From a virus (Duplodnaviria; Heunggongvirae; Uroviricota; Caudoviricetes): a stretch of DNA of 20,741 nucleotides. The position numbers were made by a program, and so were the translations under genes. The notes under the pieces are model-generated. The model did not search any database and had not been told where the DNA came from. It worked only from the letters and a program-made list of their open reading frames with translations. Every line of letters starts with the position of its first letter. Within the stretch, counting starts at the first letter, position 1. This document shows positions 1 to 19,481 of the stretch, piece by piece. The DNA is taken from IMG/VR virus record IMGVR_UViG_2630968533_000002; one strand, written 5' to 3'.

Positions 1-837
1 CTATTTTTTCTCTGTAATTTTTACACTGTTTTCCAACTGCTTGATGCTGACCTGCGGGGTCGGCAACTCCTCAGGCATGGTTCCGCCAAGTTCCTGAATG
101 GTTTGCCTCACCTTGCGACCCACGTCAAAGTGTGTGGTGTTAGCTTGCTGTTTTGAATTCACGCCATCCCGCTTGAGTTTTTCTTCTGTTTGGGTAGCTC
201 GAAAGAGATTAGCCGCCAGTTCTGTTGAACCCATATGATCCAGGATCTTCTGACTCTTTTTCAGCCCCTTCCGCTGATGGATGGCTTTCTGATCTAATCC
301 ACCATACAGTCCCCGGTAACCATGATTCTGAAATATGGCGAAATCGATAGCTGTCGCTACCCCAGCTTGCTGCGCTGCCTCAACTAATTGTTTGTTATGT
401 TCTTTCAACTCATTTCTCAGAAAAAGACGCTTTTCGTCTTCACGAAGTTGCCTGAAAGCTTCATCGTCAGCCAGCTCCTGCCGTCGGGTCTGGATAGCAA
501 AATAAGTTTGCCCTACTGCAATAACCGGTTTCGCAGGGTCGCCGTTTTGTACTACCAGGTAACAGGCATAGCGGGAGAGATGAACATCTTCAAGTTCTCG
601 TTGAGCCCCTGAACCTAATACAACCATTTTGGTGGTTTCAACGAAATGGTCAGATGCAGCTTGATTGCTGGCTTCGCACGCTTGAGTCGCGCGGGCCAGT
701 ACCTTTTGAAAATTGCGCCAGTCCCGATAATCCAGTAACGGTGCCAATTCTCTCGCTGACCAAAATTCTTGCCCTTCAGTGCCATAATGCCGTATCTCTT
801 CAAAAGGTTGATGATGTTCGTTCATTGCCCACTCCAT
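1..837 (-). CDS. dinD: DNA-damage-inducible protein DinD-like; complete, stop at 1-3; alternative start at 825 (MNEHHQPF...)
   Basis: 278-aa ORF whose sequence I recognise from memory as E. coli DinD; canonical LexA box 34-49 bp upstream; GC content typical of core chromosome. Confidence 0.75.
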   Translation of the reverse strand: MEWAMNEHHQPFEEIRHYGTEGQEFWSARELAPLLDYRDWRNFQKVLARATQACEASNQAASDHFVETTKMVVLGSGAQRELEDVHLSRYACYLVVQNGDPAKPVIAVGQTYFAIQTRRQELADDEAFRQLREDEKRLFLRNELKEHNKQLVEAAQQAGVATAIDFAIFQNHGYRGLYGGLDQKAIHQRKGLKKSQKILDHMGSTELAANLFRATQTEEKLKRDGVNSKQQANTTHFDVGRKVRQTIQELGGTMPEELPTPQVSIKQLENSVKITEKK

Positions 838-1011: not shown

Positions 1012-1320
1012 GTGAAGGCTGAAAAGTAAGAATTGGCGTTACGAGTTATTCAATTGGATCTGTTTGTAGAGTATTGGCTTCAATGCCGCATTGTAGCTGG
1101 TTTCTTCCTAATGCGATTTTTGATTATGTACACCCTTATGTACACGGTTTTTTCGGGTGCTTTGGTCAAAAGCCATTGTCTACATCGCTCACGATCGAGG
1201 TGTGTAACCCTGTTCAGGCTTGTTGTACTGCGCACGCGTATTGCTCGTGAAATTGATTGTGAGAGGTAAGTTAATCGCTATTTTTAGGAAGTGTATTTAC
1301 ATAGAATGGGGAAACGGACT

Positions 1321-1368: not shown

Positions 1369-2133
1369 TTATCGCATTTGTGCTTCTTCTTCACGAATAC
1401 GCTGAATAGCATTTGCTAAACGCAATTTGGAGTTGTCATCCCAATCTTGGGTTCTTTGGCCTACTGGTGCACATGGGGTAATTGAACCACTAACCAGCAT
1501 TTGACGAACTTCAGCAACTTCTTGTGCACTGATAGAAACGTGTGGTGAATGTGGGTTTTTGGTATCCATAATCAGCCCCCTCTGCAATAGAGCTTCGTTT
1601 ACTTCGCTAATGGTTGAAACAGAGTCTTCTACTAATGATGCGTTAGTCCTGAAGTCTAAAAAACGTACAGTGCCGCCAGTGTATGGGTCAAGCTTTTTAG
1701 ATTCTTCAATTGCTGATCTTGCGCAATGGCTATACATCCAGTTTTGCGCAGCAGCACCGCATCCTGAGCCTGTAAAGACAGCGAACAGTTCTTCCGTTTC
1801 GTTATTTTTTACAACTAATTTTTGACCTTTATCAAAAATCACTTCATTAGTTGATTTTTTCACAATATGTAAATTTACCGATTGACCAGTAGGTAAAACA
1901 ACTGGTGGTTCTTGTTGAGATAGGTCTCCTCGCCACCAATGCTTCCATAACTGAATCAAAAGACCATCACCGGCTAAAAGCATAACAAAATCATTTCGTG
2001 GAGCTAGCTTACCGAAGCCGGTATCGTCAATATACAGGATATGACCATCGTAGCCATGTGGGCTAAGATCAACAGACCACCTAGAGTCGGTCGCTACTAA
2101 GGCGTTAACACGATCATATACCGTTGTAGTCAT
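1369..2133 (-). CDS. Hypothetical 254-aa protein; weak motif-level resemblance to HslV/proteasome-type Ntn-hydrolases
   Basis: Long ORF, GC lower than the dinD flank (by eye about 42%), own terminator. N-terminus MTTTV, an AGDG motif and a GSGCGAAAQ motif recall HslV (MTTIV..AGDG..GSGG.YA.AAA) from memory; not verified. Confidence 0.6.
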   Translation of the reverse strand: MTTTVYDRVNALVATDSRWSVDLSPHGYDGHILYIDDTGFGKLAPRNDFVMLLAGDGLLIQLWKHWWRGDLSQQEPPVVLPTGQSVNLHIVKKSTNEVIFDKGQKLVVKNNETEELFAVFTGSGCGAAAQNWMYSHCARSAIEESKKLDPYTGGTVRFLDFRTNASLVEDSVSTISEVNEALLQRGLIMDTKNPHSPHVSISAQEVAEVRQMLVSGSITPCAPVGQRTQDWDDNSKLRLANAIQRIREEEAQMR

Positions 2134-2302
2134 TATAGATGCTCATAAACCATTAAGGTTCAAAAACTCTATAGCAAATGTTGAAAGAAGCAAATTGATT
2201 ATACTTATTAATGCGATGTTGGGTGTCTTGATCTTTTAGCTGATGCTATGCGAAAGCAACGACAGTTTTGCTTGGTCATTGTAGTAAGACACCTCCTTTG
2301 CT

Positions 2303-2590
2303 TTATCGTAGCTGGCAATCTTTATCGCGATAACGCCTGAAGTACCCTCTCGCTTCCTCATCCATACCAAGAGCCGAATGAGTCCGCTTAACTGCCTGTC
2401 TTAAATCTCCGAATCTGTCTGTAGTTGCTGGTGGGCGTGCCGCCTTACGGATACATTCAGAGCGTCTGTTTGCTGCATGTTCACGTTCTTTATCGCCATC
2501 TGCCAGCATCATGACTTCTGCCCATCGTGCGGCAGCTCTCCGGTATAGCCCTTTTGACTCCAGCTCTTCAGCTTTCCTGTCCCTTATCAT
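2303..2590 (-). CDS. Small regulator, PerC-family-like (95 aa)
   Basis: ORF with N-terminal AEELESKGLYRRAAARW motif that I recall as typical of PerC/Pch-type activators; start lies 37-63 bp from a tandem operator array. Confidence 0.5.
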   Translation of the reverse strand: MIRDRKAEELESKGLYRRAAARWAEVMMLADGDKEREHAANRRSECIRKAARPPATTDRFGDLRQAVKRTHSALGMDEEARGYFRRYRDKDCQLR

Positions 2591-2626
2591 TTCTGCCTCT
2601 CAGATTATATAGATAAGCAAAAAGGT

Positions 2627-2747
2627 GTTGGTTCAGTTGGTTCAGTTGGTTCAATTTGTAAAGATCGTTGTTTTTATTGTGTTTTTTCAGAAATATTGAA
2701 CCAACATCAACTCATTTTGAACCAACACAGCCCAGCTCTGAACCAAC
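2627..2747. promoter_or_regulatory. Divergent promoter/operator region: GTTGGTTCA x3 in perfect tandem (2627-2653) and TGAACCAAC x3 inverted, spaced exactly 21 bp (2697, 2718, 2739)
   Basis: Read directly from sequence; AT-rich spacer between the two arrays; lies between divergently oriented regulator genes at 2590 (minus) and 2850 (plus). Confidence 0.65.
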
Positions 2748-2849
2748 AACACAGCGATAGATTTGTGATTGGTCCGTTATTTTCTGGCTGATATTTGAGC
2801 GTATAACAGTGTTATACAGTGGTATACTGTATGGATATTACTCACTGAT

Positions 2850-3305
2850 ATGGTCTTTGCAATGAGCAAATCTAATCTGATCGCGTTCCGCATCCCATCT
2901 GAATTGCAGGATGAGTTTAATCGGTCTGTTCTCGCTTCTGGAGGAGATAAAACCTCCTGGCTTGTTGATGCGATTCGCATGAAGCTGGGACAGCCGGAAA
3001 AGTCTATTGATTCACGAATGCTTGGGCTGGTGGAGCGCATGGAAAAAGCCGCTGCGTCGCTTATTGCCGGAAAGCCGAATATCCCACCAAAGCCATATAA
3101 CGAAACGGCAGTTATAAAGATCATTGCCGATACCATCCAACAGGGATTTGATAATGGGCGTGTGATAGCTGAACGGATCAATGAAGCAGGCTATCAAACA
3201 AAAGCTGGTAAAGCGTGGGATAAAGATATTTACAGCGCGTGGAAGCGTCAGGGAAACAATGCTGAAAAGTTAAAAGCGGTGATTGATTGTAAGGTCAGCG
3301 TATAA
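2850..3305 (+). CDS. Ribbon-helix-helix (Arc/Mnt/CopG-like) DNA-binding protein with uncharacterised C-terminal domain (151 aa; possible start at 2862)
   Basis: N-terminal LIAFRIPSELQDEF...SWLVDAIRMKL fits a beta-strand plus two-helix RHH pattern; preceded by palindromic elements at 2801-2834 (TATAAC..GTTATA, ATACAG..CTGTAT). Confidence 0.55.
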   Translation: MVFAMSKSNLIAFRIPSELQDEFNRSVLASGGDKTSWLVDAIRMKLGQPEKSIDSRMLGLVERMEKAAASLIAGKPNIPPKPYNETAVIKIIADTIQQGFDNGRVIAERINEAGYQTKAGKAWDKDIYSAWKRQGNNAEKLKAVIDCKVSV

Positions 3306-3384
3306 ACATGAGTGCCCATTGGAAAGCTGCTTGGGCCAATAGCTTTATACACCAGCAGTTGGTGACGATAGGTGAGGATCAGGC

Positions 3385-3585
3385 ATGAAAGGCAGAACGC
3401 CACACATTGAACATCAAGCCAACCACTTCTCGGATGTTCGCAATGAGATGATTGCCATTCGCGGTGATATGCACGGAATGGAGCGTCGCCTAGCAGATAA
3501 GATGGACGAGAATCAGAAGTGGATCATCGTCCTGTTGATTTTATCAATTCTTATCCCGCTACTTATCGCATTGGTCACAAAATGA
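3385..3585 (+). CDS. Small C-terminally anchored membrane protein (66 aa)
   Basis: GGTGAGGA Shine-Dalgarno 8 nt upstream of ATG; hydrophilic N-terminus followed by one hydrophobic helix WIIVLLILSILIPLLIALV at the C-terminus. Confidence 0.5.
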   Translation: MKGRTPHIEHQANHFSDVRNEMIAIRGDMHGMERRLADKMDENQKWIIVLLILSILIPLLIALVTK

Positions 3586-3613
3586 ATATCCAATGTGTAT
3601 GCTGTCGATGCTA

Positions 3614-3996
3614 CGCGCGCGTACTTGTCGCAAAATATCAGGCAAAGGCCAGATTCAGAAAGTCGTGATAACCACCAGCACAACATGAGATGTCATGTAA
3701 CGCGATTTATCACACCAGATACATGTGATTGGTGTACCCGCATAAAACATTGTCATAGCGCGTCCTGTGCGCATATACGCCGATAATCAACACATCACCA
3801 CCACTCTGTCTCATGTAGAGAACACTTTTATGGTATCCCCCGCCATCGTGCGCGTACTAGTCGGACGCAGTTGCAAAACTTTTTGCAACTGATACCCCTC
3901 GCGCGCGTACTTGTCTCGAAATTGGTGTTTTGCTGTGGCAGTGATATCAGAAAAATCTTCCTGTTTCACATAAAGCGGATATGCGCGTACTGTAAC
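3614..3996. repeat. Iteron-like array: four copies of GCGCGTACT(N)GT, including a perfect 16-bp direct repeat CGCGCGCGTACTTGTC at 3614-3629 and 3900-3915; perfect palindrome CAGTTGCAAAA-CT-TTTTGCAACTG at 3868-3891
   Basis: Read directly; occupies the intergenic region between the 66-aa gene and the membrane-protein gene. The ORF-track ORF 3595-3786 overlaps it and is probably not coding. Confidence 0.6.
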
Positions 3997-4107
3997 GGCC
4001 CCATCAACGGGGATCGGATTTGAAATCCCGACCCCAAGCTATGTACCAAATGCCATGTCTTGGATATATGATGATTGCCATTCTAAACAACGCTAAAGGG
4101 GGTTGGT

Positions 4108-4722
4108 GTGAGCAGAAAAGATACTAAAGAATTGCTAACTATCTGCATGGTGTACTTTTCAATTTATTTTTGTGCATACATGATAGTCCCAGATGAGTTT
4201 GAACATGGCAGTATTATTTATTCCATAACATTCTATTTTTTAGAGCTAACACCAATTTTGGCTATCCTTTTGGCAATACATATTTATTTTTCCTTAAAAA
4301 AAGAATCGACTAATTGGGAGAAGGTATGGAGAGACAGAGGATTTCTAACATCACCTAAAGATGATGCATATGAGAGTGATTTTTCTGACTTTATAACAAA
4401 CTACTACTCCAGCGAACAATTCAAAAATAGACTGTCTGATGTTTGGGAAACAGCAATGTATTCTATAGGGATTATATTATTGATACTTACTGGTATTGCT
4501 CAATATGTTTTTAACATTGACTTATCATTAAATCCTGAAAATTTAATATCGCCATTGATTTTTGGTGAGATATTGATCTTCTCATTCGGAATTTTCTTGA
4601 GTGTTGTTCTCTGCTCATTATGCAAGCTACTGACTAACAGGTATCCGGGTGAAGCAAGGAGAGCAAGAAAGGCAAATCCATATTATCTTTTATTTCCTAA
4701 TGGAGACAGCAGAGATATCTAA
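4108..4722 (+). CDS. Polytopic inner-membrane protein (204 aa, GTG start), very low GC; candidate superinfection-exclusion or abortive-infection protein
   Basis: AAAGGGGG Shine-Dalgarno 6 nt upstream of GTG; about six hydrophobic helices with a roughly 70-aa charged loop; AT-rich codons (by eye near 30% GC) against a roughly 50% background; convergent with the 701-aa gene. Confidence 0.6.
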   Translation: MSRKDTKELLTICMVYFSIYFCAYMIVPDEFEHGSIIYSITFYFLELTPILAILLAIHIYFSLKKESTNWEKVWRDRGFLTSPKDDAYESDFSDFITNYYSSEQFKNRLSDVWETAMYSIGIILLILTGIAQYVFNIDLSLNPENLISPLIFGEILIFSFGIFLSVVLCSLCKLLTNRYPGEARRARKANPYYLLFPNGDSRDI

Positions 4723-4741: not shown

Positions 4742-6847
4742 TTATTGAGCTTCTTTTTGTGATGCCTGTGCGACTCTGGTGAGCGATTGTGTGACCGTAC
4801 TGATCGCTCTGTCATATGCTGTGCTACCTTTTGGCGTATTTGCCAGACGTAACAAGGCATTTCGTATAACAGGGCTTTCGTATGCCTTCGCTGCTCCGCC
4901 TACGGCACCAGCAGCAGGAACAACAAACGCAGCCGTTTTTAGCATCCCCGCTAATACTGCTGCGTTTATGATGCCACCACCAACTAACAATCCATAAAGC
5001 TGCTGACCATTTAAGTTTTGAACGTTCGCTTTTGCCGCGTGTCTTGTATCGTTGAGGTATTTAATAACGCCGTCCAGTTCCTTTCCATGTACGCCTTTAA
5101 AGAAAGTTGCTGATTGCTTCCTGTTCCGGTGTAACGCATTAATAAACTTTTCAACACTAATATTTCCAGACGGATCAGTCGCCTTATCTACAGCATTCTG
5201 AACTATGGCTGCTCGTGCGTTTTGCCTACCATTGTCATCCAGAAGCCTGTAAAGCTGAGAACGTTCTGATGGGCTTTGGCTAAAAACGAGTTTTGTTACA
5301 TCCTCAGGCGTGGCCTTGCCGCTGGCTATTGCCTTTTGAACGCGCGTTCTTCCCATCATGTCATTGAATTTAGACCATGAGCGATCAACCCTTGCCATAT
5401 TAATGGCTTCGTCTGCTCCAAGATTTTTGGCTACGGCTTTTTTCATATCCGCCGTATATGCCTTGTAGATAATATCGCTGGCTTTCTGGAGCGTATCTTT
5501 ATCAACAGTGTCAGATGACGCCATAAATCTCTTTCGAAGATCGGTTCTGTTTTCCCTCGCCAGACGCAGGTCATTTGGTCCGCTGGTGATATCGTCTTTA
5601 AATTGCTGCAAGACTTTTACCGCGGCTCTATCCTGAGATTTGCCCGGGCGGCTTAACACGGCAATCTGATTGTCGATAGCTTTTACCGTGTTTGAGAGAT
5701 CGACAGGGGTATCCCCCATAGCGTCAATTATGCGGTTATATCGCTTTCCTGCTGCCTCAATGAATTTTTGTTGCCCTTTAGTCGCAGATTCATAAAGCTG
5801 TTTATCAGAAATGCCACCCAGACCATCGCTAAATGTTCTGACTAAATTTTCTCGTGCTTGTTGTTGATTCAGCCGATTCTTACCGGTTCCAAAAAAAGGA
5901 ACTCTTTCGCCTAATGTCTGAGCCTGACTCTGCATAAAGGTTTTATCTTTCAGCATGTCACTGGTCATTAACGGCAGATTTCTTTCCGATGCAAAGTCGA
6001 CAGCAGCCTTTGCTTCAGGCGACATATCACCACGAACAGCCCTCGAAACCGCACTCGCTGTATTTTCCAGCCCCTTACCAATACCACCAATGCCAGCAGA
6101 AATTACCGTTTGTAACGGATCAATACCTTCTCCACCAGCAAGGCTGGTGGCTCCCTGTAGTGCTAAATCTGTAGCTGCTGATTTTCCTATGGCACCAAGC
6201 ACCGTTCCAGCCCTGCCCGCTGGTGTAAACGCCAGCGCATTAGCCAGAAACGATGCCACGTCTTGCGGCGATAAACCCGGCTTGTTCAGAGCATAATCAC
6301 CGGATGGCAGGGAAACGATAGTGTTACCCTTCTCATCCTGCCTTAATTTCGCTCCCATGCTCTGAAGAATCTTTTCCTGAGATGCGTCAGAGCCGAAAAG
6401 TTGAGACCATCGAGCTTTTAGAGCATCCATGCTGAGTGAGGTTAACTCTGGGGCAAGGTCGACATTTTGCAGTCTCTCCATCTCTGGAGTCATTCGGCTT
6501 TCGCCTGTTATAGCATCGCGCATCGCAGCCCCAAGACTGGCTCCCTGTTCTGCTGAACGCTCAAGCCCCTCTCTTTGCTGAGTAGCTAACTTTGCATACC
6601 CTGACGCAAGAGAATTATCAGATGATGTATGTTGAATATTTTGAGTTGCTGATTGGGCTCGGTCTATTTCATTCGTTGATGGTAGTGGATAGGCAGCATA
6701 AAAAGCCTGCTTAGCCTGTGCTACACTTTCTCCGGCTTGCGGGGCAACGACTTCATTGAAGTATTGCTCCTGAGCCTGCGCTTTTTGTTCTGGTGCTAAC
6801 GCCTGATACTGTGGAGAGGCGATAACATCTTTCCATGCTTTAGCCAT
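4742..6847 (-). CDS. 701-aa Ala/Gln/Gly-rich protein with hydrophobic Gly-rich C-terminus; P22 gp16-like ejection (DNA-transfer) protein candidate
   Basis: Long ORF, start overlaps upstream stop; composition and position as last gene of the 153/225/473/701 series; similarity to gp16 inferred from size, order and composition only. Confidence 0.7.
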   Translation of the reverse strand: MAKAWKDVIASPQYQALAPEQKAQAQEQYFNEVVAPQAGESVAQAKQAFYAAYPLPSTNEIDRAQSATQNIQHTSSDNSLASGYAKLATQQREGLERSAEQGASLGAAMRDAITGESRMTPEMERLQNVDLAPELTSLSMDALKARWSQLFGSDASQEKILQSMGAKLRQDEKGNTIVSLPSGDYALNKPGLSPQDVASFLANALAFTPAGRAGTVLGAIGKSAATDLALQGATSLAGGEGIDPLQTVISAGIGGIGKGLENTASAVSRAVRGDMSPEAKAAVDFASERNLPLMTSDMLKDKTFMQSQAQTLGERVPFFGTGKNRLNQQQARENLVRTFSDGLGGISDKQLYESATKGQQKFIEAAGKRYNRIIDAMGDTPVDLSNTVKAIDNQIAVLSRPGKSQDRAAVKVLQQFKDDITSGPNDLRLARENRTDLRKRFMASSDTVDKDTLQKASDIIYKAYTADMKKAVAKNLGADEAINMARVDRSWSKFNDMMGRTRVQKAIASGKATPEDVTKLVFSQSPSERSQLYRLLDDNGRQNARAAIVQNAVDKATDPSGNISVEKFINALHRNRKQSATFFKGVHGKELDGVIKYLNDTRHAAKANVQNLNGQQLYGLLVGGGIINAAVLAGMLKTAAFVVPAAGAVGGAAKAYESPVIRNALLRLANTPKGSTAYDRAISTVTQSLTRVAQASQKEAQ

Positions 6848-8268
6848 TAATCACCCCATAGTGAAGAAAAATTACTGCTGGCTGCTGGCTGTGATACCTG
6901 CTCAGATTGCGGCAATGTCTGCGACGAAGAAGAAGTTCCTCTGTCAACTGCTGAAATAACCCGCAAAGCATCATAAGCTCGACCAGAAGCAGCTTTCAGC
7001 GAATTGAACTGGTTTTCCATCTTCCTACGCTTGGTATCAATGGTTTTTGTGGAATCACCAGGCTGAGGGAAATACATTTGATAATATTTGGACATTTCAG
7101 CTGGTAGGATAGATGCCCCTGTTTCCTGACGGAGTATTGCCATTATTGCGTCATTAGCATTAACAACGTATTGCTGCTCTGTTGGGCTGAGCGTTAAGTT
7201 AGCCAGCGTCCCATTACCCAAAGCATTATTAATGATCGCCACTCGCTGTGGGCTAAGCTGGTCTTTCAGTGTATCTATTGAATCAAGAGCATCCCTAACT
7301 CTGTATGCAAATCCAGCAGCTTTTTTAGCCCCTTCTGGCGACTTTTCCATGATCTTTTGGGCTGTTGGCAAAGCTATTGGACGAAACCCATCTCCAGATA
7401 TTGGCTGGTTTAGTTTTCCCTGCTCTTCACTTCCGTCTGTGTAGTATTTTGTGACAGTGCCATCATCGTTTTCTCTAACACTCATTAATTTTTTGGCGTT
7501 TGTATTAATTCCAGCCGCTGCCGCAAATGCCGCAGCCCCCTCTGGATCCGCCTTTAACATTTGCGCGTACTGATTGTAATTCTGCATTGCGGCTGTTGGT
7601 GCATATGCTGACGTTAACGCATTTGCTCGGCTAATATCCTGCCCTCTCGCCTGAAGTGCTTCTCCAGCCTGATTGCTGCGGATTGTCTCTGCCAACTTGC
7701 CACGCTCAATATCCCGACCTTCCATTCGATCTTTGATATCGAAGTACTTCTCATGACCGAGAGAAAACAGTGCCATACTACCAGCAAGCCGCTGGAATCC
7801 CTGTGGATCATTAACATGCATTTCGGCAACAGACTCAGGAGAAATCCCCAAGCGACGCATTTCATCTTCGTTATCTGCTATGAATTTTCCAAATGCCCCA
7901 GTTCCGAGCGAAGATGCGATTTGAGCACTAGTCGCAAGATGACCAATAGAATTTCTCTGGTCGTCATCAATAAAGCCCATCCCTTTCTGAACGCTTTCAA
8001 ATTCTTCTGGATACTCAGAAATAAGACTGCGCATTTTGTTTCTGTCTCCAGACTCAAAAGCCCCGGCATATGCTTTCTGAAACTCTGCTTTACGCTGTTG
8101 TTGACGTGCCTGCTGATTAATCTCAGCAACGCCTCTTATCCCCTGTAGCGCCATTAAACCTACGTTTGGCTGCTGCTGATACTGCACAGGCTGAGGAACG
8201 GAAGAACGAGGAGCATTATCATTTTGCGGTGCCATGCTAGGCAGCCCGCCAAGTTGCCATGTCGCCAT
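6847..8268 (-). CDS. 473-aa protein; P22 gp20-like ejection protein candidate
   Basis: Long ORF translationally coupled to both neighbours; size close to P22 gp20 (about 471 aa, from memory). Confidence 0.7.
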   Translation of the reverse strand: MATWQLGGLPSMAPQNDNAPRSSVPQPVQYQQQPNVGLMALQGIRGVAEINQQARQQQRKAEFQKAYAGAFESGDRNKMRSLISEYPEEFESVQKGMGFIDDDQRNSIGHLATSAQIASSLGTGAFGKFIADNEDEMRRLGISPESVAEMHVNDPQGFQRLAGSMALFSLGHEKYFDIKDRMEGRDIERGKLAETIRSNQAGEALQARGQDISRANALTSAYAPTAAMQNYNQYAQMLKADPEGAAAFAAAAGINTNAKKLMSVRENDDGTVTKYYTDGSEEQGKLNQPISGDGFRPIALPTAQKIMEKSPEGAKKAAGFAYRVRDALDSIDTLKDQLSPQRVAIINNALGNGTLANLTLSPTEQQYVVNANDAIMAILRQETGASILPAEMSKYYQMYFPQPGDSTKTIDTKRRKMENQFNSLKAASGRAYDALRVISAVDRGTSSSSQTLPQSEQVSQPAASSNFSSLWGD

Positions 8269-8945
8269 TAGAATCCAAGCCCCCCAACAAGACCAATAAG
8301 CCCACCACCAATAGCGCCTGCCGCAGTACCTATTCCAGGAACAACGGAACCAAGTTGAGCACCCGCTAAAGCGCCTGATGCTGCCCCACCAATACCACGC
8401 GCAAGACTGGATGGCTGCTGCGCCTGACCTGCACGAATAGCGCCAAGCCCCTGCAAGAGTTGTCCGGTATTATTGGCGTAGTTTTGCCCTGCCGTTGCCT
8501 GCCCTGATGCCGCATTCATCCCGACATTTAGCAGGTTTCCATAATTTTGCATTTGCCCACTAAGCCAATTGTTATAAAGCATGGGCGCAATGGAAGATAA
8601 CTGGTTACTGGTAGCTGTTGAGCCAAGCCCCCCGGTAGCTTCTGCTGAGACAAGGTTCTGATAACGGGCCTGATCTGCCTGTGTTTTATATAAACCAGAA
8701 CCAAAGAAATCATTCGCGGCTTTATTCTGCCCTTCCAGAGTCATCAGTCCTTGTAGTTGTTGTAAAGCAGGCAATCCGACTTCTGCATACGGCTTGAGAT
8801 TATTCATCACCGTATTCCACTGCTCGCGCTGCAAATCAATTGCCTGCTGCTGGGCCTTCGCCTGAGCTTTAGAGGCACCACCATCACCGCCTTTTTCGTA
8901 TACGGCACGATTGAGATGTTTATGAGCTATATGGGTAATTAACAT
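8268..8945 (-). CDS. 225-aa protein with Gly-rich hydrophobic C-terminal tail; P22 gp7-like ejection protein candidate
   Basis: ORF overlapping neighbours; C-terminus GIGGAASGALAGAQLGSVVPGIGTAAGAIGGGLIGLVGGLGF; size close to P22 gp7 (about 229 aa, from memory). Confidence 0.7.
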   Translation of the reverse strand: MLITHIAHKHLNRAVYEKGGDGGASKAQAKAQQQAIDLQREQWNTVMNNLKPYAEVGLPALQQLQGLMTLEGQNKAANDFFGSGLYKTQADQARYQNLVSAEATGGLGSTATSNQLSSIAPMLYNNWLSGQMQNYGNLLNVGMNAASGQATAGQNYANNTGQLLQGLGAIRAGQAQQPSSLARGIGGAASGALAGAQLGSVVPGIGTAAGAIGGGLIGLVGGLGF

Positions 8946-9400
8946 TCGCTGAATTCCTTATATTGTTGCCGAGTTAACTGATAAAGCGTTACGCCGACGG
9001 GTTTACCACATCTGATATAAGCATCATCAAGGTGACCAACACGGGTAGCGCCAAGCAAACGGATAATTGCCCGTCCGTATTTGGTGGTGTCAGGAACCAT
9101 GGTAATGCTGTTAAGGAATGGTGAGTTTTCGAGAAGCCATTTGCAGAATAATCGATGCCCTTGCAGTGCATATTCACCACGGAATCCGGGGTCGTACACC
9201 GCATGGCATTCAACAATGCTATGCCAGAAGTTACGCACTTCATGAACGCCAGCCAGCACCAATCCTTCGTAGATGCCGAGATATACCGCATCAGGCTTGA
9301 TGTAGTACGTGTGCCCCGGCTCAACAATATTTTCGGTATTGCCAGGATCGTTAAGAAAGGCCTGTAATCGCACAGGGTTATCAATAAATTTTAGTTCCAT
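8939..9400 (-). CDS. 153-aa protein, first large gene of the operon; gp14-like position
   Basis: ORF overlapping the 225-aa gene by 7 bp; function unknown; assignment by position only. Confidence 0.6.
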   Translation of the reverse strand: MELKFIDNPVRLQAFLNDPGNTENIVEPGHTYYIKPDAVYLGIYEGLVLAGVHEVRNFWHSIVECHAVYDPGFRGEYALQGHRLFCKWLLENSPFLNSITMVPDTTKYGRAIIRLLGATRVGHLDDAYIRCGKPVGVTLYQLTRQQYKEFSEC

Positions 9401-9416
9401 GCGATGCCATCCATTT

Positions 9417-9578
9417 TCACATACAGCCTGCCAGCGCCTTATCTATTAACCCTCGTGCAATTTCATGTAGAGTTGGCGCTACTCCAATTCCTGATTTTTT
9501 ACGCTGCTCTTCCTGAATTTTCTTTATCGCTTCCATTTGCTTCTCACTTATCAATACCGGCTTTACTGAAATAGCCAT
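9417..9578 (-). CDS. Small RHH-like protein (53 aa), not in the ORF track; putative operon regulator
   Basis: Translated by hand: MAISVKPVLISEKQMEAIKKIQEEQRKKSGIGVAPTLHEIARGLIDKALAGCM; AAGGGGG Shine-Dalgarno 4-5 nt upstream; stop 17 bp before the 153-aa start. Confidence 0.45.
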   Translation of the reverse strand: MAISVKPVLISEKQMEAIKKIQEEQRKKSGIGVAPTLHEIARGLIDKALAGCM

Positions 9579-10071
9579 AACGCCCCCTTAGAACTGTATA
9601 AAACAACAGTTATTATAGTTTCATAAAACGCAATATTCATCATGTTTATTGCAAAATGTGAAACGAATAGCACAAGAAAATGCCACCGCTCAGTAGCTGG
9701 TGGCATCGTTCTGTGTGTCAAGTTTTGACAGGTTTTTTATGGACTCTAAAAACTATATTTATGGTGTCGCATTACTCTTCATGGCAGGCGCTTTCCAGTT
9801 CTGCCCTTGCTTCTGGCTCCATTGGTAATTTGATTCGCGATCAGCTATGCGGATGGTTTGCTGAACAGGCATAACAACATCTCAGAGGCTATTTTTTGAA
9901 CTACGAAAATTTCGTAGTGCTCACCTTCAAAAACGTCACGCCCTTGTACACTGGATTTTACAAAAGTCTCGTAAAACTCTTTCCTGTTCTGGGCTATGTG
10001 CCAAACCGCAGCGAATACCTCCGTCTGCCAGATGAGCAAAACATACCTTATAAAGAAAATCGCTGTTTTTG

Positions 10072-10175
10072 CTGTACCACCTGTACCACCATGCCACAAA
10101 CCCTTGTGTGGCGCGGCCTACAGGTGGTACAGGTGGGTAAAAATGACCTCTACCCACCTGTACAGACCTGTACCA
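10072..10175. repeat. Iteron cluster B: multiple copies of GGTGGTACAGG / CCTGTACCACC in both orientations
   Basis: Read directly: CTGTACCAC-CTGTACCACC (10072-10090), GGTGGTACAGGTGG (10123-10136), CCACCTGTACAGACCTGTACCA (10154-10175). ORF-track ORFs across this region are probably spurious. Confidence 0.6.
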
Positions 10176-10180
10176 TTTAT

Positions 10181-10918
10181 TTAATTTTTACCCATAGCAG
10201 CACATAATCCCTTTTTTGAAATATTGAAAAATGCGTTCATTCTTCCCGCTGGTTTAACCTTGTAGCCGCTTGCCACCATCGCCGCAATAAATGCTCCGTT
10301 GGGGATATAGTGCGGGTGATCACTGTGCTGGTGGTTTATCTGGTTATATCGCTCCACTTCATGCTTCAACGTGTCAGATGTGGGGTTATCCTGCGGGAAG
10401 CTCTCAATCTGGGCATTACTCATCCCGTTGTCTCTGATCCATCTCAGGCAGCTTTTCGCCGATACGATAAATGACGGGTTATCAAGCGGGTTTTCCCAGT
10501 CCGCATTCCGGTTGTGGAGCGCCAGTCCGTCAAGGTTAAATTGTGGGTATTCAGCGGTAATTACTGTCACTGCGTGGCGGATTTCAGTCTCGTCACAACA
10601 TGGCTCATCTCCCACACCAGCAGGGTAATAATCTGAACCACCGGGACTGATACAGCGTTTACCACTGAAAGGCCATTGCTTCGCCATTTCGGGTGTTGAG
10701 TGATTACCGTCGCTCCGTTCGCGCTGTGCCTCTGTCCACTGGCTGGCATATTCAGTAAATGAAACCCTTTGCCCCTGGCGCATCCAGTGCGCAATCATAA
10801 TTAAAGTGCGTTCCAGACTTTGGATGTCGCCAGCATTCCCGCACTGTGTAGCGAAACTTTTTAATTCTTCGCGCTCCGTTCTGGTCATTCCCTGCGGTAT
10901 GCAATAGTTATTGTTCAT
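10181..10918 (-). CDS. Hypothetical 245-aa protein between the two iteron clusters
   Basis: Long ORF, overlaps the upstream 76-aa ORF; no family recognised. Confidence 0.55.
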   Translation of the reverse strand: MNNNYCIPQGMTRTEREELKSFATQCGNAGDIQSLERTLIMIAHWMRQGQRVSFTEYASQWTEAQRERSDGNHSTPEMAKQWPFSGKRCISPGGSDYYPAGVGDEPCCDETEIRHAVTVITAEYPQFNLDGLALHNRNADWENPLDNPSFIVSAKSCLRWIRDNGMSNAQIESFPQDNPTSDTLKHEVERYNQINHQHSDHPHYIPNGAFIAAMVASGYKVKPAGRMNAFFNISKKGLCAAMGKN

Positions 10919-11314: not shown

Positions 11315-13669
11315 TTAAAAAACATCATAACCCCCCATACCGATCAGACGGGCAAACGCAGCCTGTAGAACTCCGACCTCTGGTAGTTCGTAGAACACGC
11401 CATTCCCACGGTCTGGTCTTCCATGCTTCACCAGCCCCATTTGTGCAAGTGACTTACCCAGTAGTGATCTGGCTGCTGGTTCTTTAAGCTTTTCCCCACG
11501 CTCAAGCGACCACGCTACAAATCGACTAACCATATCCTTTGCAAACAAACGGACTTCGCCATTAAACGGAGGTTCATTGATTAGCTCGCCATAAAGAAAC
11601 AATTCAACGCCAGACAGCCCCAGCAAGATTTCTTCACGTAAGGCATCGGTCTGTGGCGCTCGTTGAGGGTCAAAACCTGATAGATCCACCCCTTTAAGAT
11701 GCCAAAGCAACTTTGCGGCACCGCCATCATTAAGCCAACTGTACAGCCGATCAAAATACTCCCGGCTCTGTGCTTTTTCAGGAGATGGCTCAAGCACGAG
11801 ATAGCGGCGCTCTCTTATCCCTGCCTGTAATACCTGTGTGCTGTTACTGGCAAATATCAACCGGGCAAAATTCGGCATTGGTTCAGCATCAATTCCCTTG
11901 CGCTCAAGGTTAAACGTCGGTTCGCTAATAATCGCTTTAAGTCTGTCAGCTTCAGACGGCTTGTGGATCGTCACTTCGTCAGCAAATACCAGTAGCTTGT
12001 TAGCAAGTATTGAATTGAAGCGCCCTGAAATATGTCCCGCCCCGTTAATGTGGGCGGCGTACTGCCCCAGTATTTGCAGCAGCGGTTTAACCGTTGTGCC
12101 TTTCCCTGTGCCCGGGACAGATTTCATTACGATTGCCACGGACGGTTTTTCATCAGGCTTTTGGATAATGTGCGCCATCCACTGGATAAGATATTGGTAT
12201 GCCTCTTCATTCCCGGCACAGACAACCTGCAACAGGTGATTAAGGTATACCGTGCAATCTCCTTCAATTGGTTCCAGTGCCAGCCCCTCATACAGATTAA
12301 AAACATCGTCAGGGCATTTGTCTGGTACTGGATAAAATCCTACGCCTCCTGGCTTGTAGTTCTTCCCACTCCATGACAGCCACGCCGATCCCGCCAGCTT
12401 TCTGGCGACTCTCGGTTTATGATGAAAATAATGCTGAAATTGTGATAAATCCTCGAAAACGTGCGATACACCGCCGGTTTGAGAAGGCTTTAGCGACACC
12501 ACCTTGTGTTTCCCGCCGATGGTGACATGCGTAAACGTCCGGTTGATTTCTTCGAGGACAGCAATTTCATCATCGCTTAACACCTCGCCAGAACTGATCT
12601 CATTCAGCGCCCCGACTGACTGTTTGTGATTTTTCACCTGCGCCCCTTTCCCCCGTGGCTGGTACATCGAATCTTTAAATGCTGCTGTGGCTGCCGCCAG
12701 CCCGTGTTGTTGGTGATAGTCGTTCCAGTCGGCTTTATAGTCAGTCGGTGGCAGAGACACCCAGCCAGCTACGGAAATAGCGGCCCTCTCTGCGGCATCT
12801 TTCCCCGTGTTGATCCCTCCACTTTCGGAGTTTCCTTGCTGGTGATCGTTATCTGCGGCAATGATGATTTGTGCCTGTGGATATGTTCTGCGCATGACTT
12901 CCGCTACTGGCAACAGGTTGCCAGCGTCGATTGCTGCCACTGTCATTGCGTCAGGGCGAATTAAATGGCACGACAGGGCGGTAGCCACCCCCTCAGCAAT
13001 TATGATGCTGTGAGGTCGTTTCTGTGCGTTTATGGCGTGATATGCCCCCCGCTTTGCCGAACCTGTCAGGAGTCTTTTTTCACCATGTGAGGTAATAGTC
13101 TGTGCTGCTGTGACTGCGCCGGATTTATCCACCAGCGCCAGCAATAGAGATCCATCTGGCAACACGGGAAATGTAAAATCACCTACCCCTTTCGCAACCA
13201 GATAATCAGATTTGCTGTTTACAGCCTTTCTGCGCATGTCATCAAACTGACGGGAAAACGTATCCCGTCTTTGTTGTTCATCCTTCTCTGCCCTTTTCAG
13301 GCGCTCCTGTTCGCGTCGCTGGCGCTCGGTTTCCAGTTGTTCCCGTTTCTGGCTGGTGGCTTCTGGTGTTTCTGTTGTCCGGTAATCAATACCCAGAACA
13401 TCAGCGGCAAGCAGCGCCGCCTCTGTTGTGTCGCAGTTATTTACGCGTTTAATTAAATCCAGCCCATCACCAGCGCCGCACTGATTACAGATGAAGCTAC
13501 CGCGCCCGTTGTCATCGAACCGGAATCGATCTTTGCCCCCACATGCAGGGCAGGGAGCATGACGGCGAGGAGAGTCAGGGACATTTATGTTCAGGCAGCC
13601 CAGCACATGAGGCCAGTTGTTTTCAGACGCACTGATAACCTGACGGATAAGATCAATGTTTCGCATCAC
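11315..13669 (-). CDS. P4 alpha / D5-type primase-helicase (784 aa)
   Basis: N-terminal CxxC..CxxC zinc-ribbon (APCPACGG...ICNQCGAGDG), TOPRIM-like AADND motif, C-terminal helicase Walker A (VPGTGKGTT) and Walker B (LLVFADEV). Confidence 0.85.
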   Translation of the reverse strand: MMRNIDLIRQVISASENNWPHVLGCLNINVPDSPRRHAPCPACGGKDRFRFDDNGRGSFICNQCGAGDGLDLIKRVNNCDTTEAALLAADVLGIDYRTTETPEATSQKREQLETERQRREQERLKRAEKDEQQRRDTFSRQFDDMRRKAVNSKSDYLVAKGVGDFTFPVLPDGSLLLALVDKSGAVTAAQTITSHGEKRLLTGSAKRGAYHAINAQKRPHSIIIAEGVATALSCHLIRPDAMTVAAIDAGNLLPVAEVMRRTYPQAQIIIAADNDHQQGNSESGGINTGKDAAERAAISVAGWVSLPPTDYKADWNDYHQQHGLAAATAAFKDSMYQPRGKGAQVKNHKQSVGALNEISSGEVLSDDEIAVLEEINRTFTHVTIGGKHKVVSLKPSQTGGVSHVFEDLSQFQHYFHHKPRVARKLAGSAWLSWSGKNYKPGGVGFYPVPDKCPDDVFNLYEGLALEPIEGDCTVYLNHLLQVVCAGNEEAYQYLIQWMAHIIQKPDEKPSVAIVMKSVPGTGKGTTVKPLLQILGQYAAHINGAGHISGRFNSILANKLLVFADEVTIHKPSEADRLKAIISEPTFNLERKGIDAEPMPNFARLIFASNSTQVLQAGIRERRYLVLEPSPEKAQSREYFDRLYSWLNDGGAAKLLWHLKGVDLSGFDPQRAPQTDALREEILLGLSGVELFLYGELINEPPFNGEVRLFAKDMVSRFVAWSLERGEKLKEPAARSLLGKSLAQMGLVKHGRPDRGNGVFYELPEVGVLQAAFARLIGMGGYDVF

Positions 13670-15445: not shown

Positions 15446-15636
15446 TTTTCACCCCCAAGAATTACCAGCTCGGCACGGGCATCGTTAACCAAAGATGAGC
15501 ACGCTTTAATCGCATCCACGACATCAGCAGCGTCCATTTCTTCAGCTGAAAGACTGACAGCAACCAGGACAGCCGCTGCTTGCTCGATTAATTGAAGTGC
15601 GGACGTAAGGCGAGGGGTATTAATTGAGTTATTCAT
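15442..15636 (-). CDS. Hypothetical small protein (64 aa from MNNSIN)
   Basis: Internal ATG at 15636 with G-rich Shine-Dalgarno-like sequence, overlapping the upstream stop (ATGAATAA). Confidence 0.4.
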   Translation of the reverse strand: MNNSINTPRLTSALQLIEQAAAVLVAVSLSAEEMDAADVVDAIKACSSLVNDARAELVILGGEK

Positions 15637-16657
15637 TGGTTGCCCCCGTTTTTCCTGGCATTTCGCCACCTTCCAGCAGGAAATGAACGTCACGAACGGC
15701 GAGATCCAATATCGCGAGTAACGCCTTCAGTCTTTCGTCTCGTGAGGGAGAGTTGCTCACCAGAATGTCGTTAATCACTTCTGTCAGTGTGATGATCTGG
15801 CTTGTGCGTTCGAGGGGATCCATATGCACATCGTAGGTTTTAATCATGTGCCACCTCCATGCGGATACGACCAGCAAAAAAGCAGACGTGATCGCGCACC
15901 AGAGAACGGCGAGCATCGCGTTCAGACTCGGCAGCAATATGATGAATTTTGGCGGTAATTGTCGGGCAATCGCGGCGAACTGCGGCGATAATCCAGATAA
16001 ATTGCGGTTTTTGGGTAGGGGTAGTAGCCAGCATGTGGCAGCCTCCTTGATTGATGGTTTATAGCCACCGCCCAAGAGACCAATCTTGCTGGCGGTGGAC
16101 TGTACGGAGTTGGCCTTACTGGCAATCAAGGAAACCAGCCTACCCGAAGGTAGCCCCATACAGCCCACCATTGATAAGGTGTGCGTGTGCGCCGATACAA
16201 AAAAAGACGCTGGCGCGTCATGTATCGCCTCGATTGTCAGCGGGAGGCCAATCCCGGCACCCGTTTTATGAGGTGCCTTATAACCATAAACCGTGTTGCC
16301 GCATAACGGCAAGCTCTTTTTTATGGACTCCGAAAACTCACTATTGGAAGCACCAGATGCACAATACATCGCGCTCATTTCGTTAACGTCGCGAGTGTGG
16401 ACGAAGGTTTTTGTGGAGTCACTACGCGAGCAGAGAAAGCCATCTACGACCAGAAATTCTCTGGCGCTGCCGCTGACCTTCTCAACGCTAACATCATCGA
16501 CCGTAATTTCTGACATAGTTAAGGCATCCGCTCCTACCACCAGTAAATGATAAACTTTGCTTGTATCTGCTGTATTAATGCCTGACTTTGACGCCATATT
16601 GCTGGATTTTGGCGACATGCCAGCCAGTGAAAATATCTTCTTCTGGACGGGTATCAT
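15629..16657 (-). CDS. 342-codon ORF, Ser/Leu-rich; the C-terminal 72 codons (15629-15847) may be a separate gene; a second ORF is embedded out of frame at 15840-16034
   Basis: Start ATG at 16657 overlaps the TGA of the upstream 59-aa gene (ATGA); internal MIKTYD start at 15847 has a GGAGGTGG Shine-Dalgarno; true gene structure is uncertain. Confidence 0.4.
15840..16034 (-). CDS. 64-aa ORF, possibly Icd-like (host cell-division inhibitor family), embedded out of frame in the 342-codon ORF
   Basis: Canonical AAGGAGG Shine-Dalgarno 7 nt upstream of ATG; [10 protein letters not shown]...[14 protein letters not shown] motif loosely recalls Icd-like proteins of P4-type elements (memory only). Confidence 0.4.
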   Translation of the reverse strand: MLATTPTQKPQFIWIIAAVRRDCPTITAKIHHIAAESERDARRSLVRDHVCFFAGRIRMEVAHD

Positions 16658-17671: not shown

Positions 17672-18103
17672 TTAGGCGGCGTTAAACGCGTCCGGGTAGA
17701 GTTTCAGAATGTCGGCAATTTCCTGCTGAGAAAGTCCGTTGTGATCATTTATGCTCGCAAGATGGTTAACATGAGTGATCACTTTCAGAACATCACCACG
17801 GCAGGAGAAACGGTAGCGAAGGTGTGTTCCGATACCATCAGGATTCTTTTCGTCGATACGCTCCAGAGTGATTCCAAGCTGGCGTTCTAACTCTGTTGCA
17901 TAGTTACGACCAGAAGACAGACGACAGTAGCGAAGAATGTCATTTTCTGTCCATCCCTCTATACCAGTACGCAGCATATAGACTCTGGCACGATGCTTTT
18001 TCGGTGTGCGCTTTGGTGCTTGAAGGGATTTTGTAAGGGGCGTAACATCAGATACGCGAATATCTGAATTAGCCGCCTGTAATGGGCGGTTTTTCTTTTC
18101 CAT
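17672..18103 (-). CDS. Hypothetical basic protein (143 aa)
   Basis: ORF immediately downstream of alpA with its start overlapping the alpA stop; no family recognised. Confidence 0.5.
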   Translation of the reverse strand: MEKKNRPLQAANSDIRVSDVTPLTKSLQAPKRTPKKHRARVYMLRTGIEGWTENDILRYCRLSSGRNYATELERQLGITLERIDEKNPDGIGTHLRYRFSCRGDVLKVITHVNHLASINDHNGLSQQEIADILKLYPDAFNAA

Positions 18104-18306
18104 CAGACCACCTTCCCGCGGCGTTCTGCCAGCCAGTTGTGAATCTCAACCGCATCAAACGCAGTTATTTTTTCTCCCAGCTTTACCGGACGTGGTAGTG
18201 AACCGTTTCTTACTTTACGGTCGATGGTGGATACACTAACGCCCAGCAATTCAGCCAGGCGGAAGCGTCTGATATAGCCTTTTGTAGGAATAGTGTCGGT
18301 GTTCAT
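18103..18306 (-). CDS. alpA: AlpA-family excisionase/transcriptional regulator (67 aa)
   Basis: Small basic protein with helix-turn-helix LAELLGVSVSTIDRKVRNGSLPRPVKLGEKITAF..EIHNWL, typical of AlpA/Vis-type proteins; sits one gene away from the integrase as in CP4-57-type elements. Confidence 0.7.
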   Translation of the reverse strand: MNTDTIPTKGYIRRFRLAELLGVSVSTIDRKVRNGSLPRPVKLGEKITAFDAVEIHNWLAERRGKVV

Positions 18307-19386: not shown

Positions 19387-19481
19387 TGCGTCACCTTTTA
19401 CGCTGCGCCTTATTTTGTGATTGAGCCAGGCGGTAAGGCTTCCCGCTTTTCGCCCCGTCGAGCTAGGCTCAATCTATTCAG

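Follow-up and report, generated by a model that had tools for sequence, protein, structure and literature searches.

A stretch of 20,741 nucleotides (nt) filed in IMG/VR as virus record IMGVR_UViG_2630968533_000002 (Caudoviricetes), referred to below as the window, raises the question of why an integrated element in which no terminase, portal, coat, tail or lysis gene can be recognized should encode the gp14-gp7-gp20-gp16 series of ejection proteins of phage P22. The window is 100% identical to part of the chromosome of Escherichia coli ECONIH1, where the element forms an island between the core genes yicC and dinD, with 12 kb of core chromosome free of virion genes on each side. An earlier note, made by a model from the letters of the window, had offered three answers: a satellite that supplies its own ejection proteins to the virion of a P22-like helper, a remnant of a degraded prophage, or an unrelated membrane-acting system. 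The first is the reading that our results support, loading of the proteins into virions being predicted. By gene content, the island is a member of the family of EcCIMP1, a phage-inducible chromosomal island (PICI) of E. coli MP1 that has been published but scarcely characterized. Apparently recognized here for the first time are the full gp14-gp7-gp20-gp16 plus SieA block, dual packaging-site look-alikes and a LexA box, as well as a gp20/gp16 core with allele swapping and a P4-like backbone without P2-directed genes.

The ejection-protein operon and its surroundings

The operon consists of five minus-strand open reading frames (ORFs) at 4742-9578, found exactly where the earlier note had placed them and tightly coupled, the successive junctions in 5' to 3' order being a 16-nt gap, a 7-nt overlap and two 1-nt overlaps. 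With its promoter, it comprises the following features.

9594-9617, minus strand: operon promoter core, with the -10 element TATAAT at 9617-9612 followed by a LexA/SOS box, CTGT-N8-ACAG, at 9609-9594 (cross-island comparison)
9417-9578, minus strand: leader gene of 53 amino acids (aa), from the ORF call; function unassigned
8939-9400, minus strand: homologue of P22 gp14 (153 aa; factor for ejection-protein assembly and virion stability); DUF2824, Pfam E 7e-62
8268-8945, minus strand: homologue of P22 gp7 (225 aa; ejection protein); PF25688 P22_gp7, E 7e-73
6847-8268, minus strand: homologue of P22 gp20 (473 aa; periplasmic conduit protein); PF16928 Inj_translocase, E 1e-57; phrog_917
4742-6847, minus strand: homologue of P22 gp16 (701 aa; inner-membrane ejection protein); phrog_770 'DNA transfer protein', E 2e-161

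The likeness to gp14-gp7-gp20-gp16 had been proposed from sizes and order, with quoted P22 lengths that prove correct (229, 471 and 609 aa for gp7, gp20 and gp16), and homology searches bear it out: all four proteins are clear homologues of podovirus ejection proteins (E 1e-57 to 1e-161), encoded in the P22 order. Inj_translocase covers the N-terminal domain of gp20, and phrog_917 matches the 473-aa protein over its full length (E 1e-111); for the same 701-aa gene in other islands, there is a precomputed Pfam match to PF26808 (Phage_P22_gp16). The gp14 homologue is 99% identical to that of EcCIMP1, 84% to that of the Lederbergvirus vB_EcoP_Kapi1 (Kapi1) and 25% to that of P22, and the gp7 homologue is 99% identical to that of EcCIMP1 and 52-58% to those of phages. 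The richness of the large proteins in alanine, glutamine, serine and lysine, also remarked upon before, holds (Ala 13-15%, Gln 7-11%). Of the two proteins said to end in Gly/Ala-rich hydrophobic stretches, gp7 does so, with a conserved tail at aa 205-223, whereas the stretch in gp16 (aa 617-635) lies about 65 residues before the C-terminus, near it rather than at it.

The island has in common with the 14-7-20-16-sieA segment of P22 and other lederbergviruses the four families, their order, their tight coupling and a convergent sieA gene after gene 16. It differs in what lies upstream and in how the genes are likely to be expressed: in the P22-like late operon, these genes are placed downstream of the tail-needle gene, whereas here they follow the 53-aa gene and the primase module of a 20-kb integrative island, without tail-needle, head-completion, coat, portal or terminase genes; and in place of the Q-dependent late transcription of P22, there are a LexA-boxed promoter and a satellite-specific leader gene. 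In agreement with the earlier note, no ORF of the window matched capsid, portal, terminase, tail or lysis families in Pfam and PHROGs profile searches. Similarity to phage DNA stops exactly at the gp14 start codon, so that the leader gene and the region upstream of it are island-specific, and the best cover of the cassette by any phage record at the DNA level is 27% at most.

This arrangement recurs widely. All ten distinct contexts sampled for the exact 53-aa gene are islands of the form int-AlpA-AntA-Ash-primase-53 aa-DUF2824-gp7-gp20-gp16, none with a virion gene, and Serratia islands are likewise of the int-AlpA-primase type without virion genes; homologous loci are thus not always embedded in complete prophages. 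The sampled islands occupy at least two integration sites (thrW/proA and yicC/dinD). The exact 53-, 153- and 225-aa proteins are each present on about 1000 or more contigs, including those of Citrobacter, Shigella and Salmonella, the exact 53-aa protein being indexed in 22,141 blocks of a public assembly collection, and the family as a whole is found in E. coli, Shigella, Citrobacter, Salmonella and Serratia.

The promoter points to control by the SOS response. TATAAT is invariant across E. coli, Serratia and Klebsiella islands, and the CTGT and ACAG half-sites are kept in E. coli and Serratia islands despite different spacers. Two LexA-type boxes were found in the window against 0.26 expected; the second, which precedes dinD, is a consensus LexA box (CTGTGTTTATATACAG at 871-886) and served as an internal positive control. 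The site is observed and LexA control of the operon is predicted from it; a precedent is operon I of the Staphylococcus aureus pathogenicity islands (SaPIs), which is under LexA control (PMC5052747). Two other promoter types were considered and rejected. For a P2/P4-type late promoter, there is an upstream TGT-N12-ACA dyad, but the motif is not enriched (7 occurrences, 5.2 expected) and there is no delta/ogr homologue; for a Q-dependent late promoter copied from a helper, there is no phage DNA similarity upstream of gp14, where the LexA-boxed promoter is found instead.

The leader protein had been described as resembling ribbon-helix-helix (RHH) proteins, a label for which no support was obtained: no match to Arc/MetJ/CopG families was found in Pfam, PHROGs, NCBIfam or PDB sequence searches, hhalign against Arc and Mnt gave probabilities below 1%, and fold tests gave no support. 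In Klebsiella michiganensis islands (loci L020 10001-16222 and L021), a 64%-identical homologue of the leader heads a different operon, with Terminase_2 and DUF2280 proteins, which identifies the 53-aa gene as a generic leader of the satellite post-primase operon. The ejection cassette fills the slot in which other PICIs hold packaging genes.

Packaging-site look-alikes, the SieA homologue and allele exchange

Two stretches of the island resemble parts of phage small-terminase genes (terS) that are of interest as packaging (pac) sites.

16403-16509, plus strand: fragment of P22-type small-terminase gene 3 (nt 268-374 of the gene), 88% identical to P22 nt 4-110, E 7e-32
16403-16424, plus strand: pac-like 22-mer; the first base of the terS fragment is the first base of P22 pac (P22 nt 4-25, annotated)
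16316-16340, minus strand: 25-nt exact copy of an Sf6-type terS segment (N7 terS nt 123-147), a second putative pac mimic

The P22-type fragment is flanked by stops in the gene 3 frame, has no start codon and is not a gene; the same fragment boundaries recur in comparison with 121 phage terS genes, and the 85 nt that follow the 22-mer are about 92% identical to P22. Across 13 E. coli islands, the 22-mer is invariant or one substitution off, and the 25-mer, which lies 63 nt from the P22-type fragment on the other strand, shows no variation in any of the 13 (100% conservation), although its flanks vary (91-98%). The 25-mer is also identical to nt 141-165 of the terS gene of a prophage in E. coli AH21I008 (locus L022), the same prophage that shares the island's gp16. 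In Serratia islands, a non-coding array 3' of the cassette contains two tandem P22-type copies, an Sf6-type copy and another P22-type copy; one of the two tandem copies matches P22 pac at 19 of 22 positions, and in one Serratia island the interval from the primase to the leader gene holds a further exact copy of 21 nt. By our own calculation, about 0.002 such 22-mer matches would be expected by chance in all the sequence scanned. In Sf6, pac reportedly lies within the DNA that encodes the DNA-binding domain of TerS.

Both look-alikes are absent from the Klebsiella islands that have terminase-small-subunit genes of their own, so that satellites of this kind would seem to rely on one of two devices, a small terminase of their own or mimicry of a helper pac site. 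That satellites can carry helper packaging sites is established for SaPIbov5 (PMC5052747) and EcCICFT073 (PMC6739421), which resemble the island in having copies of such sites instead of a terminase. A P2/P4 cos site was not found in the island at up to three mismatches. The terS gene of Kapi1 has no similarity to the island, and for this reason Kapi1 may perhaps be a mismatched helper.

At the distal end of the operon, a gene convergent with gp16 occupies a slot whose contents differ among islands.

4108-4722, plus strand: SieA homologue (204 aa; BLASTP), convergent with gp16; inner-membrane superinfection-exclusion protein family
3900-4111, plus strand: conserved promoter and leader flank of the swap slot 3' of gp16, 97-98% identical in other islands

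The 204-aa protein matches P22 SieA (type A) with a BLASTP E value of 8e-8 and the type-B SieA of prophage HS1 of E. coli HS, a protein tested by experiment, with E 2e-9 (34% identity over 118 aa). It contains the motifs NRLSD and NRYPGEAR, conforming to the FnRYPnEA motif of SieA, and a hydropathy scan predicts four transmembrane-like segments, among them the additional segment at the N-terminus that is known from type B. Its gene has the position and orientation of sieA in P22, following gene 16, but it does so in a satellite and not between genes 16 and 9 of a prophage. Leavitt et al., who described the SieA types and motif, found sieA genes just in P22-like prophages among the cases they examined; in the same work, SieA prevents injection by P22-like phages and alone suffices for exclusion in P22, mutations that escape it fall in the C-terminal parts of gp16 and gp20, and the ejection proteins of Sf6, HK620 and CUS-3 function in P22 virions (PMC10461980). 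PADLOC and NCBIfam searches matched neither the cassette nor the SieA homologue to a known defence system.

In other islands, the slot is occupied by unrelated membrane or secreted proteins of 129, 131 or 145 aa that share the leader MIAILNNAKGRVG; in the window, the slot leader ORF ends after 19 codons, and sieA starts at a GTG codon (4108) preceded by a Shine-Dalgarno sequence of its own. In EcCIMP1, gp16 is followed by a gene on the same strand as the cassette (locus L002 14632-15330) that encodes a 232-aa protein with the lipobox LLAGC. This lipoprotein may be what confers the superinfection immunity that has been published for EcCIMP1 without an explanation.

Comparison of the islands indicates that gp20 and gp16 are swapped as alleles among satellites: two gp20/gp16 allele pairs occur on one backbone whose gp14 and gp7 are 99% identical. 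The 473-aa gp20 of the window is 33% identical to the 439-aa allele of EcCIMP1 (71% over the N-terminal 85 aa), and the 701-aa gp16 is 19% identical to the 906-aa SLT-fusion allele of EcCIMP1, which has an N-terminal lytic transglycosylase domain. To judge from sequence identity, the gp16-type alleles of the window circulate in real phages: the island gp16 is 93.8% identical over 633 aa to gp16 of the complete P22-like prophage in AH21I008, and 66% identical to gp16 of phage N7. Between EcCIMP1 and Kapi1, identities are 83% for gp14 and 57% for gp7 but just 22% for gp20 and 23% for gp16, so the satellite alleles are not copies of those of the known helper. For gp7, gp20 and gp16 of the island, identity to the Kapi1 proteins is 18-58%. 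In islands of E. coli SCU-122 and of Serratia, the leader is followed directly by gp20-like and gp16-like genes, gp14 and gp7 being absent, which marks leader, gp20 and gp16 as the conserved core.

Possible roles of the satellite ejection proteins

EcCIMP1 is mobilized by Kapi1 (Pick, Stadel and Raivio, ISME J 2025; PMC11773190): it excises and circularizes just upon induction of Kapi1, which transduces it, and it leaves the Kapi1 titre after induction unchanged while adding superinfection immunity without a known defence system. Its discoverers identified no phage-like structural genes, noted a vague 'DNA transfer' similarity, proposed a packaging role for EcCIMP1_017-019, assigned the element to 'Type C' and left the EcCIMP1 genes up-regulated in lysogens unnamed in the text; their paper makes no mention of pac, terS or headful packaging and recognizes neither the gp14-gp7-gp20-gp16 set nor the pac look-alikes, the LexA box or the P4-type RNAs (PMC11773190). 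The satellite census in which 'Type C' was set aside never mentions ejection or injection genes (PMC10085698), and no report of satellite-encoded ejection proteins was found in the literature searched.

The island and EcCIMP1 have the same series of int, AlpA, AntA, DUF4222, Ash region, primase, 53-aa, DUF2824, gp7, gp20 and gp16 genes and a PerC-type regulator; the 53-aa protein has the same accession in both, identity is 99% for AntA, gp14 and gp7, and the two pac look-alikes are shared. They differ in the integrase and attachment (att) site (thrW next to proA in EcCIMP1, yicC/dinD here), in the C-terminal part of the primase (DUF927 in EcCIMP1, DUF5906 here), in the gp20/gp16 alleles and in the gene that follows them (the lipoprotein in EcCIMP1, the SieA homologue here), and the island has in addition genes of 245 and 76 aa and an iteron array of its own. 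A stretch of 52 nt in EcCIMP1 (L002 30659-30710), the thrW tRNA-Thr end, is 96% identical to the P22 attP/int region; EcCIMP1 thus uses P22's own chromosomal attachment site.

Measured against the definition of a PICI, the island has an integrase, AlpA and primase in conserved order, flanking att repeats and a size within 10-20 kb. The census definition requires int, AlpA, a primase or replicase and a packaging or capsid-morphogenesis gene, and excludes phage structural and lysis genes. No small terminase, Ppi, Rpp or Cpm family was matched in the island, the same lack that led to the placing of EcCIMP1 in 'Type C', and gp7, gp20 and gp16 are virion proteins in P22.

We hold it moderately probable that the island is an EcCIMP1-family satellite that parasitizes P22-like podophages (Lederbergvirus) and supplies its own ejection proteins in a cycle of entry control. 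DNA damage would lead to LexA cleavage and derepress the ejection operon at the time when an SOS-inducible helper prophage is induced, and the helper would trigger excision and replication of the island, as the literature describes for EcCIMP1. The small terminase of the helper would then recognize the P22-type and Sf6-type look-alikes, and headful packaging of island concatemers would place about 2.2 copies of the 19.7-kb element in each head of about 43 kb. Satellite ejection proteins would enter helper procapsids and, in the next cell, build the trans-envelope conduit for DNA; such loading is plausible because very divergent ejection proteins can substitute in P22 virions. Once resident, the SieA homologue, if its activity follows its homology, would exclude DNA injection by incoming P22-like phages. 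The likely benefit would be control of entry by the satellite's own 'keys' and 'lock', independent of the helper that builds the particle, since gp20 and gp16 are the targets of SieA exclusion, are always kept and are swapped as alleles.

Several points weigh against this reading. Virion loading and use of the pac look-alikes are deduced from sequence; the pac core matches P22 at just 16 of 22 positions; and in phage terS genes (80 viral loci, 99-100% identical in protein, 45 of 441 positions variable), synonymous sites at the 25-mer are not significantly frozen (p about 0.08, in a test of low power). The residues of SieA escape are uninformative, the equivalent of gp16 G532 being conserved and the gp20 region not reliably alignable, and EcCIMP1 is without a SieA homologue. 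Kapi1 transfers EcCIMP1 at a very low level (about 5e3 per ml), and a Kapi1-like prophage occurs in just 2 of 21 EcCIMP1-bearing strains (PMC11773190). The need for a second ejection set beside the helper's own is not self-evident, and loading could not be restricted to particles with satellite DNA, because ejection proteins enter procapsids before packaging.

A different role, which we judge unlikely, would have the ejection genes act in the resident cell, where gp20 and gp16, alone or with the slot product, would jam the conduit of an incoming P22-like phage without ever being components of a satellite virion. Under this alternative, the superinfection immunity that EcCIMP1 confers against Kapi1 without a known defence system (PMC11773190) would find an explanation, as would the constant presence after the cassette of a slot whose genes encode membrane proteins, secreted proteins or lipoproteins (here the SieA homologue) and the dispensability in some islands of gp14 and gp7, which are linked to virion assembly. 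The LexA box, however, implies that the operon ought to be silent in undisturbed cells, just where exclusion would have to operate; moreover, gp14 is retained in the majority of islands and is strongly constrained by purifying selection, the island proteins are almost the same as alleles that function in phages (94% for gp16), PADLOC finds nothing, and SieA alone is sufficient in P22 (PMC10461980).

That the satellite ejection proteins are instead an interference weapon, co-assembling in helper procapsids so as to spoil helper progeny, is distinctly improbable: the titres of Kapi1 after induction are unchanged by EcCIMP1 (PMC11773190), P22 virions function well with very divergent ejection proteins (PMC10461980), and the same proteins would spoil the satellite's own particles too. 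The idea draws on the strong difference between satellite and helper gp20/gp16 types and on SaPI operon I, which largely interferes with the helper. Operon I is the positional and regulatory analogue, a LexA-controlled helper-exploitation operon after the replication module (PMC5052747), but it encodes a small terminase, capsid-size factors and interference proteins, EcCICFT073 has Rpp, and neither has ejection proteins.

Very improbable, too, is the role in redirecting DNA packaging to the island that the discoverers of EcCIMP1 suggested for EcCIMP1_017-019. The cassette does lie 3' of the primase, where PICIs hold packaging genes, and the Klebsiella homologue of its leader does head a module with a terminase small subunit; yet all four proteins are full-length homologues of ejection or assembly proteins, none resembles terminase, Ppi or Rpp, and the pac look-alikes would explain packaging without a protein factor. 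P22 mutants in genes 7, 20 and 16 fill their heads with DNA, and the resulting particles are non-infectious, which likewise speaks against a packaging function.

There remains the degraded prophage. In 11 island copies, the ratio of nonsynonymous to synonymous polymorphism (pN/pS) is 0.00 for the 53-aa gene, 0.07 for gp14, 0.07 for gp7, 0.17 for gp20 and 0.18 for gp16, and for the alternative alleles it is 0.05 (gp20) and 0.14 (gp16). Every cassette ORF is intact in 10 of the 11 copies, the sole broken one being a gp16 with a single-base deletion (L012 12732-14836). As controls, we used the complete P22-like prophage of AH21I008 and a decayed one in O157:H7 at argW, which has a tail-needle pseudogene, an insertion sequence element and a truncated gp20. 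Although such remnants thus exist in E. coli and one sampled island has a frameshifted gp16, the survey and the tests for selection refute the proposal that the cassette is a dead leftover beside an unrelated island, and it has virtually no chance of being right: the island is not a prophage remnant, because the identical leader-gp14 junction recurs at no fewer than two att sites and in several genera, the ORFs are intact, pN/pS is low (0.05-0.18), translational coupling is tight, the LexA-boxed promoter is conserved, and the exact proteins are as widespread as noted above.

Backbone, cargo and the meaning of a satellite entry trait

The remainder of the island is the backbone of an integrative satellite with variable cargo.

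1123-1145, plus strand: left copy of the att repeat, ATTATGTACACCCTTATGTACAC; the right copy lies 58 nt past the integrase start
19482-20741, minus strand: tyrosine integrase (Pfam)
19407-19473, minus strand: int-alpA RNA (Rfam RF02996, 60.6 bits)
18103-18306, minus strand: AlpA/Vis-type regulator (Pfam Phage_AlpA, E 2e-8; 35% identity to P4 orf88)
16200-16276, minus strand: isrK RNA (Rfam, 65 bits, above the gathering threshold)
16088-16175, minus strand: C4 antisense RNA of the P4/P1 immunity RNA family (Rfam, 79 bits, above the gathering threshold)
11315-13669, minus strand: P4 alpha-type primase-helicase (Pfam Zn ribbon, Toprim, DUF5906)
10068-10195, strandless: dense iteron-like array of TACAGGTGG/CCACCTGTA in direct and inverted copies, 3' of the 245-aa gene; putative origin

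The att direct repeat is imperfect, ATTATGTACACC(T/C)(C/T)TATGTACAC, and its right copy lies just beyond the window edge (locus L001, the ECONIH1 chromosome, 32799-32821); the span bracketed by the two copies gives the element a size of about 19.7 kb. Since the element sits between yicC and dinD, dinD (window 1-837) is excluded from it. The backbone consists of the integrase, a variable 321-aa gene, AlpA, AntA, the 'Ash' region, small genes, the primase and genes of 76 and 245 aa. The iteron array lies just beyond the region common to islands with a DUF927 primase, conservation stopping at about 9983, and is probably an origin matched to the DUF5906 primase of this island, comparable to the ori/crr repeats of P4.

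The statement of the earlier note that the operon follows a P4-type replication module is upheld, the primase being 30% identical to the N-terminal 314 aa of P4 alpha. P4 also resembles the island in its integrase (25% identity), Vis/AlpA (35%), C4/CI-type immunity RNA (the island RNA region includes 39 nt with 90% identity to the immunity region of P4) and short repeats close to the genes for replication. No homologue of P4 sid, psu, delta or epsilon was found in the island by tblastn of P4 proteins or by Pfam and PHROGs searches. As the comparison finds just int, the N-terminal part of alpha, Vis/AlpA and the immunity region, the backbone is P4-like minus the genes for exploitation of P2. 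P4 depends on a P2-like myophage helper that uses cos, whereas the predicted helper of the island is a podophage that packages by the headful.

Several neighbouring loci deserve mention in their own right. The annotated 342-aa 'Ash family protein' ORF (15629-16657) overlaps the C4 and isrK RNAs on the same strand and is overlapped on the opposite strand by the terS fragment, and the part of it that matches Pfam Phage_ASH (aa 124-219) coincides with the RNA genes; a large share of the ORF, perhaps along with the Phage_ASH family as such, may be a translated RNA immunity region. The 321-aa gene between the integrase and AlpA (18421-19386) has a weak PADLOC match to the candidate system PDC-S31 (E 0.002) and is replaced in near-identical islands by genes of 281, 293/350 (DUF6387) or 258 aa, so that this gap looks like a defence hotspot. 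The distal end beyond the sieA slot (1369-3700) is variable cargo, here a PerC-family regulator (2303-2590) and genes without assigned function; the distal cargo of other islands (L008-L019) includes Fic, GmrSD plus HEPN, RnlA/RnlB, Abi_2, ImmA/Peptidase_M78 and PRiA4_ORF3. A few kb outside the island, between pyrE and slmA, the ECONIH1 chromosome has a reverse transcriptase family gene (L001 35641-36600), which may belong to a retron-type element unrelated to the ejection operon.

Known satellites commandeer the capsid size, the packaging specificity, the late transcription or the tails of their helpers. To our knowledge, no satellite has been demonstrated to provide the proteins by which DNA crosses the envelope of the recipient. 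It is tentatively proposed, at somewhat less than even confidence, that these islands are the first satellite lineage with its own ejection machinery, a P4-derived lineage that switched its helper from a P2-like myophage to a P22-like podophage and made entry a swappable trait. SOS-controlled gp14-gp7-gp20-gp16, SieA and two types of pac mimic would then have replaced sid, psu, delta and cos, and the loaded ejection proteins would decide DNA entry, including entry into cells protected by SieA-type proteins.

If the ejection proteins are indeed loaded, it is the satellite and not the phage that would partly determine which cells transducing particles can enter and how sensitive they are to exclusion. 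The islands also offer a natural system for the study of the interaction between gp20/gp16 and SieA in P22 biology. The look-alikes predict that phages with a P22-type or Sf6-type small terminase will be better helpers of EcCIMP1-type satellites than Kapi1. The findings also draw attention to a class of islands that satellite census tools discard as 'Type C'. Because these islands carry PerC-like virulence regulators and defence genes, the route by which they would be transferred is relevant to the evolution of pathogens.

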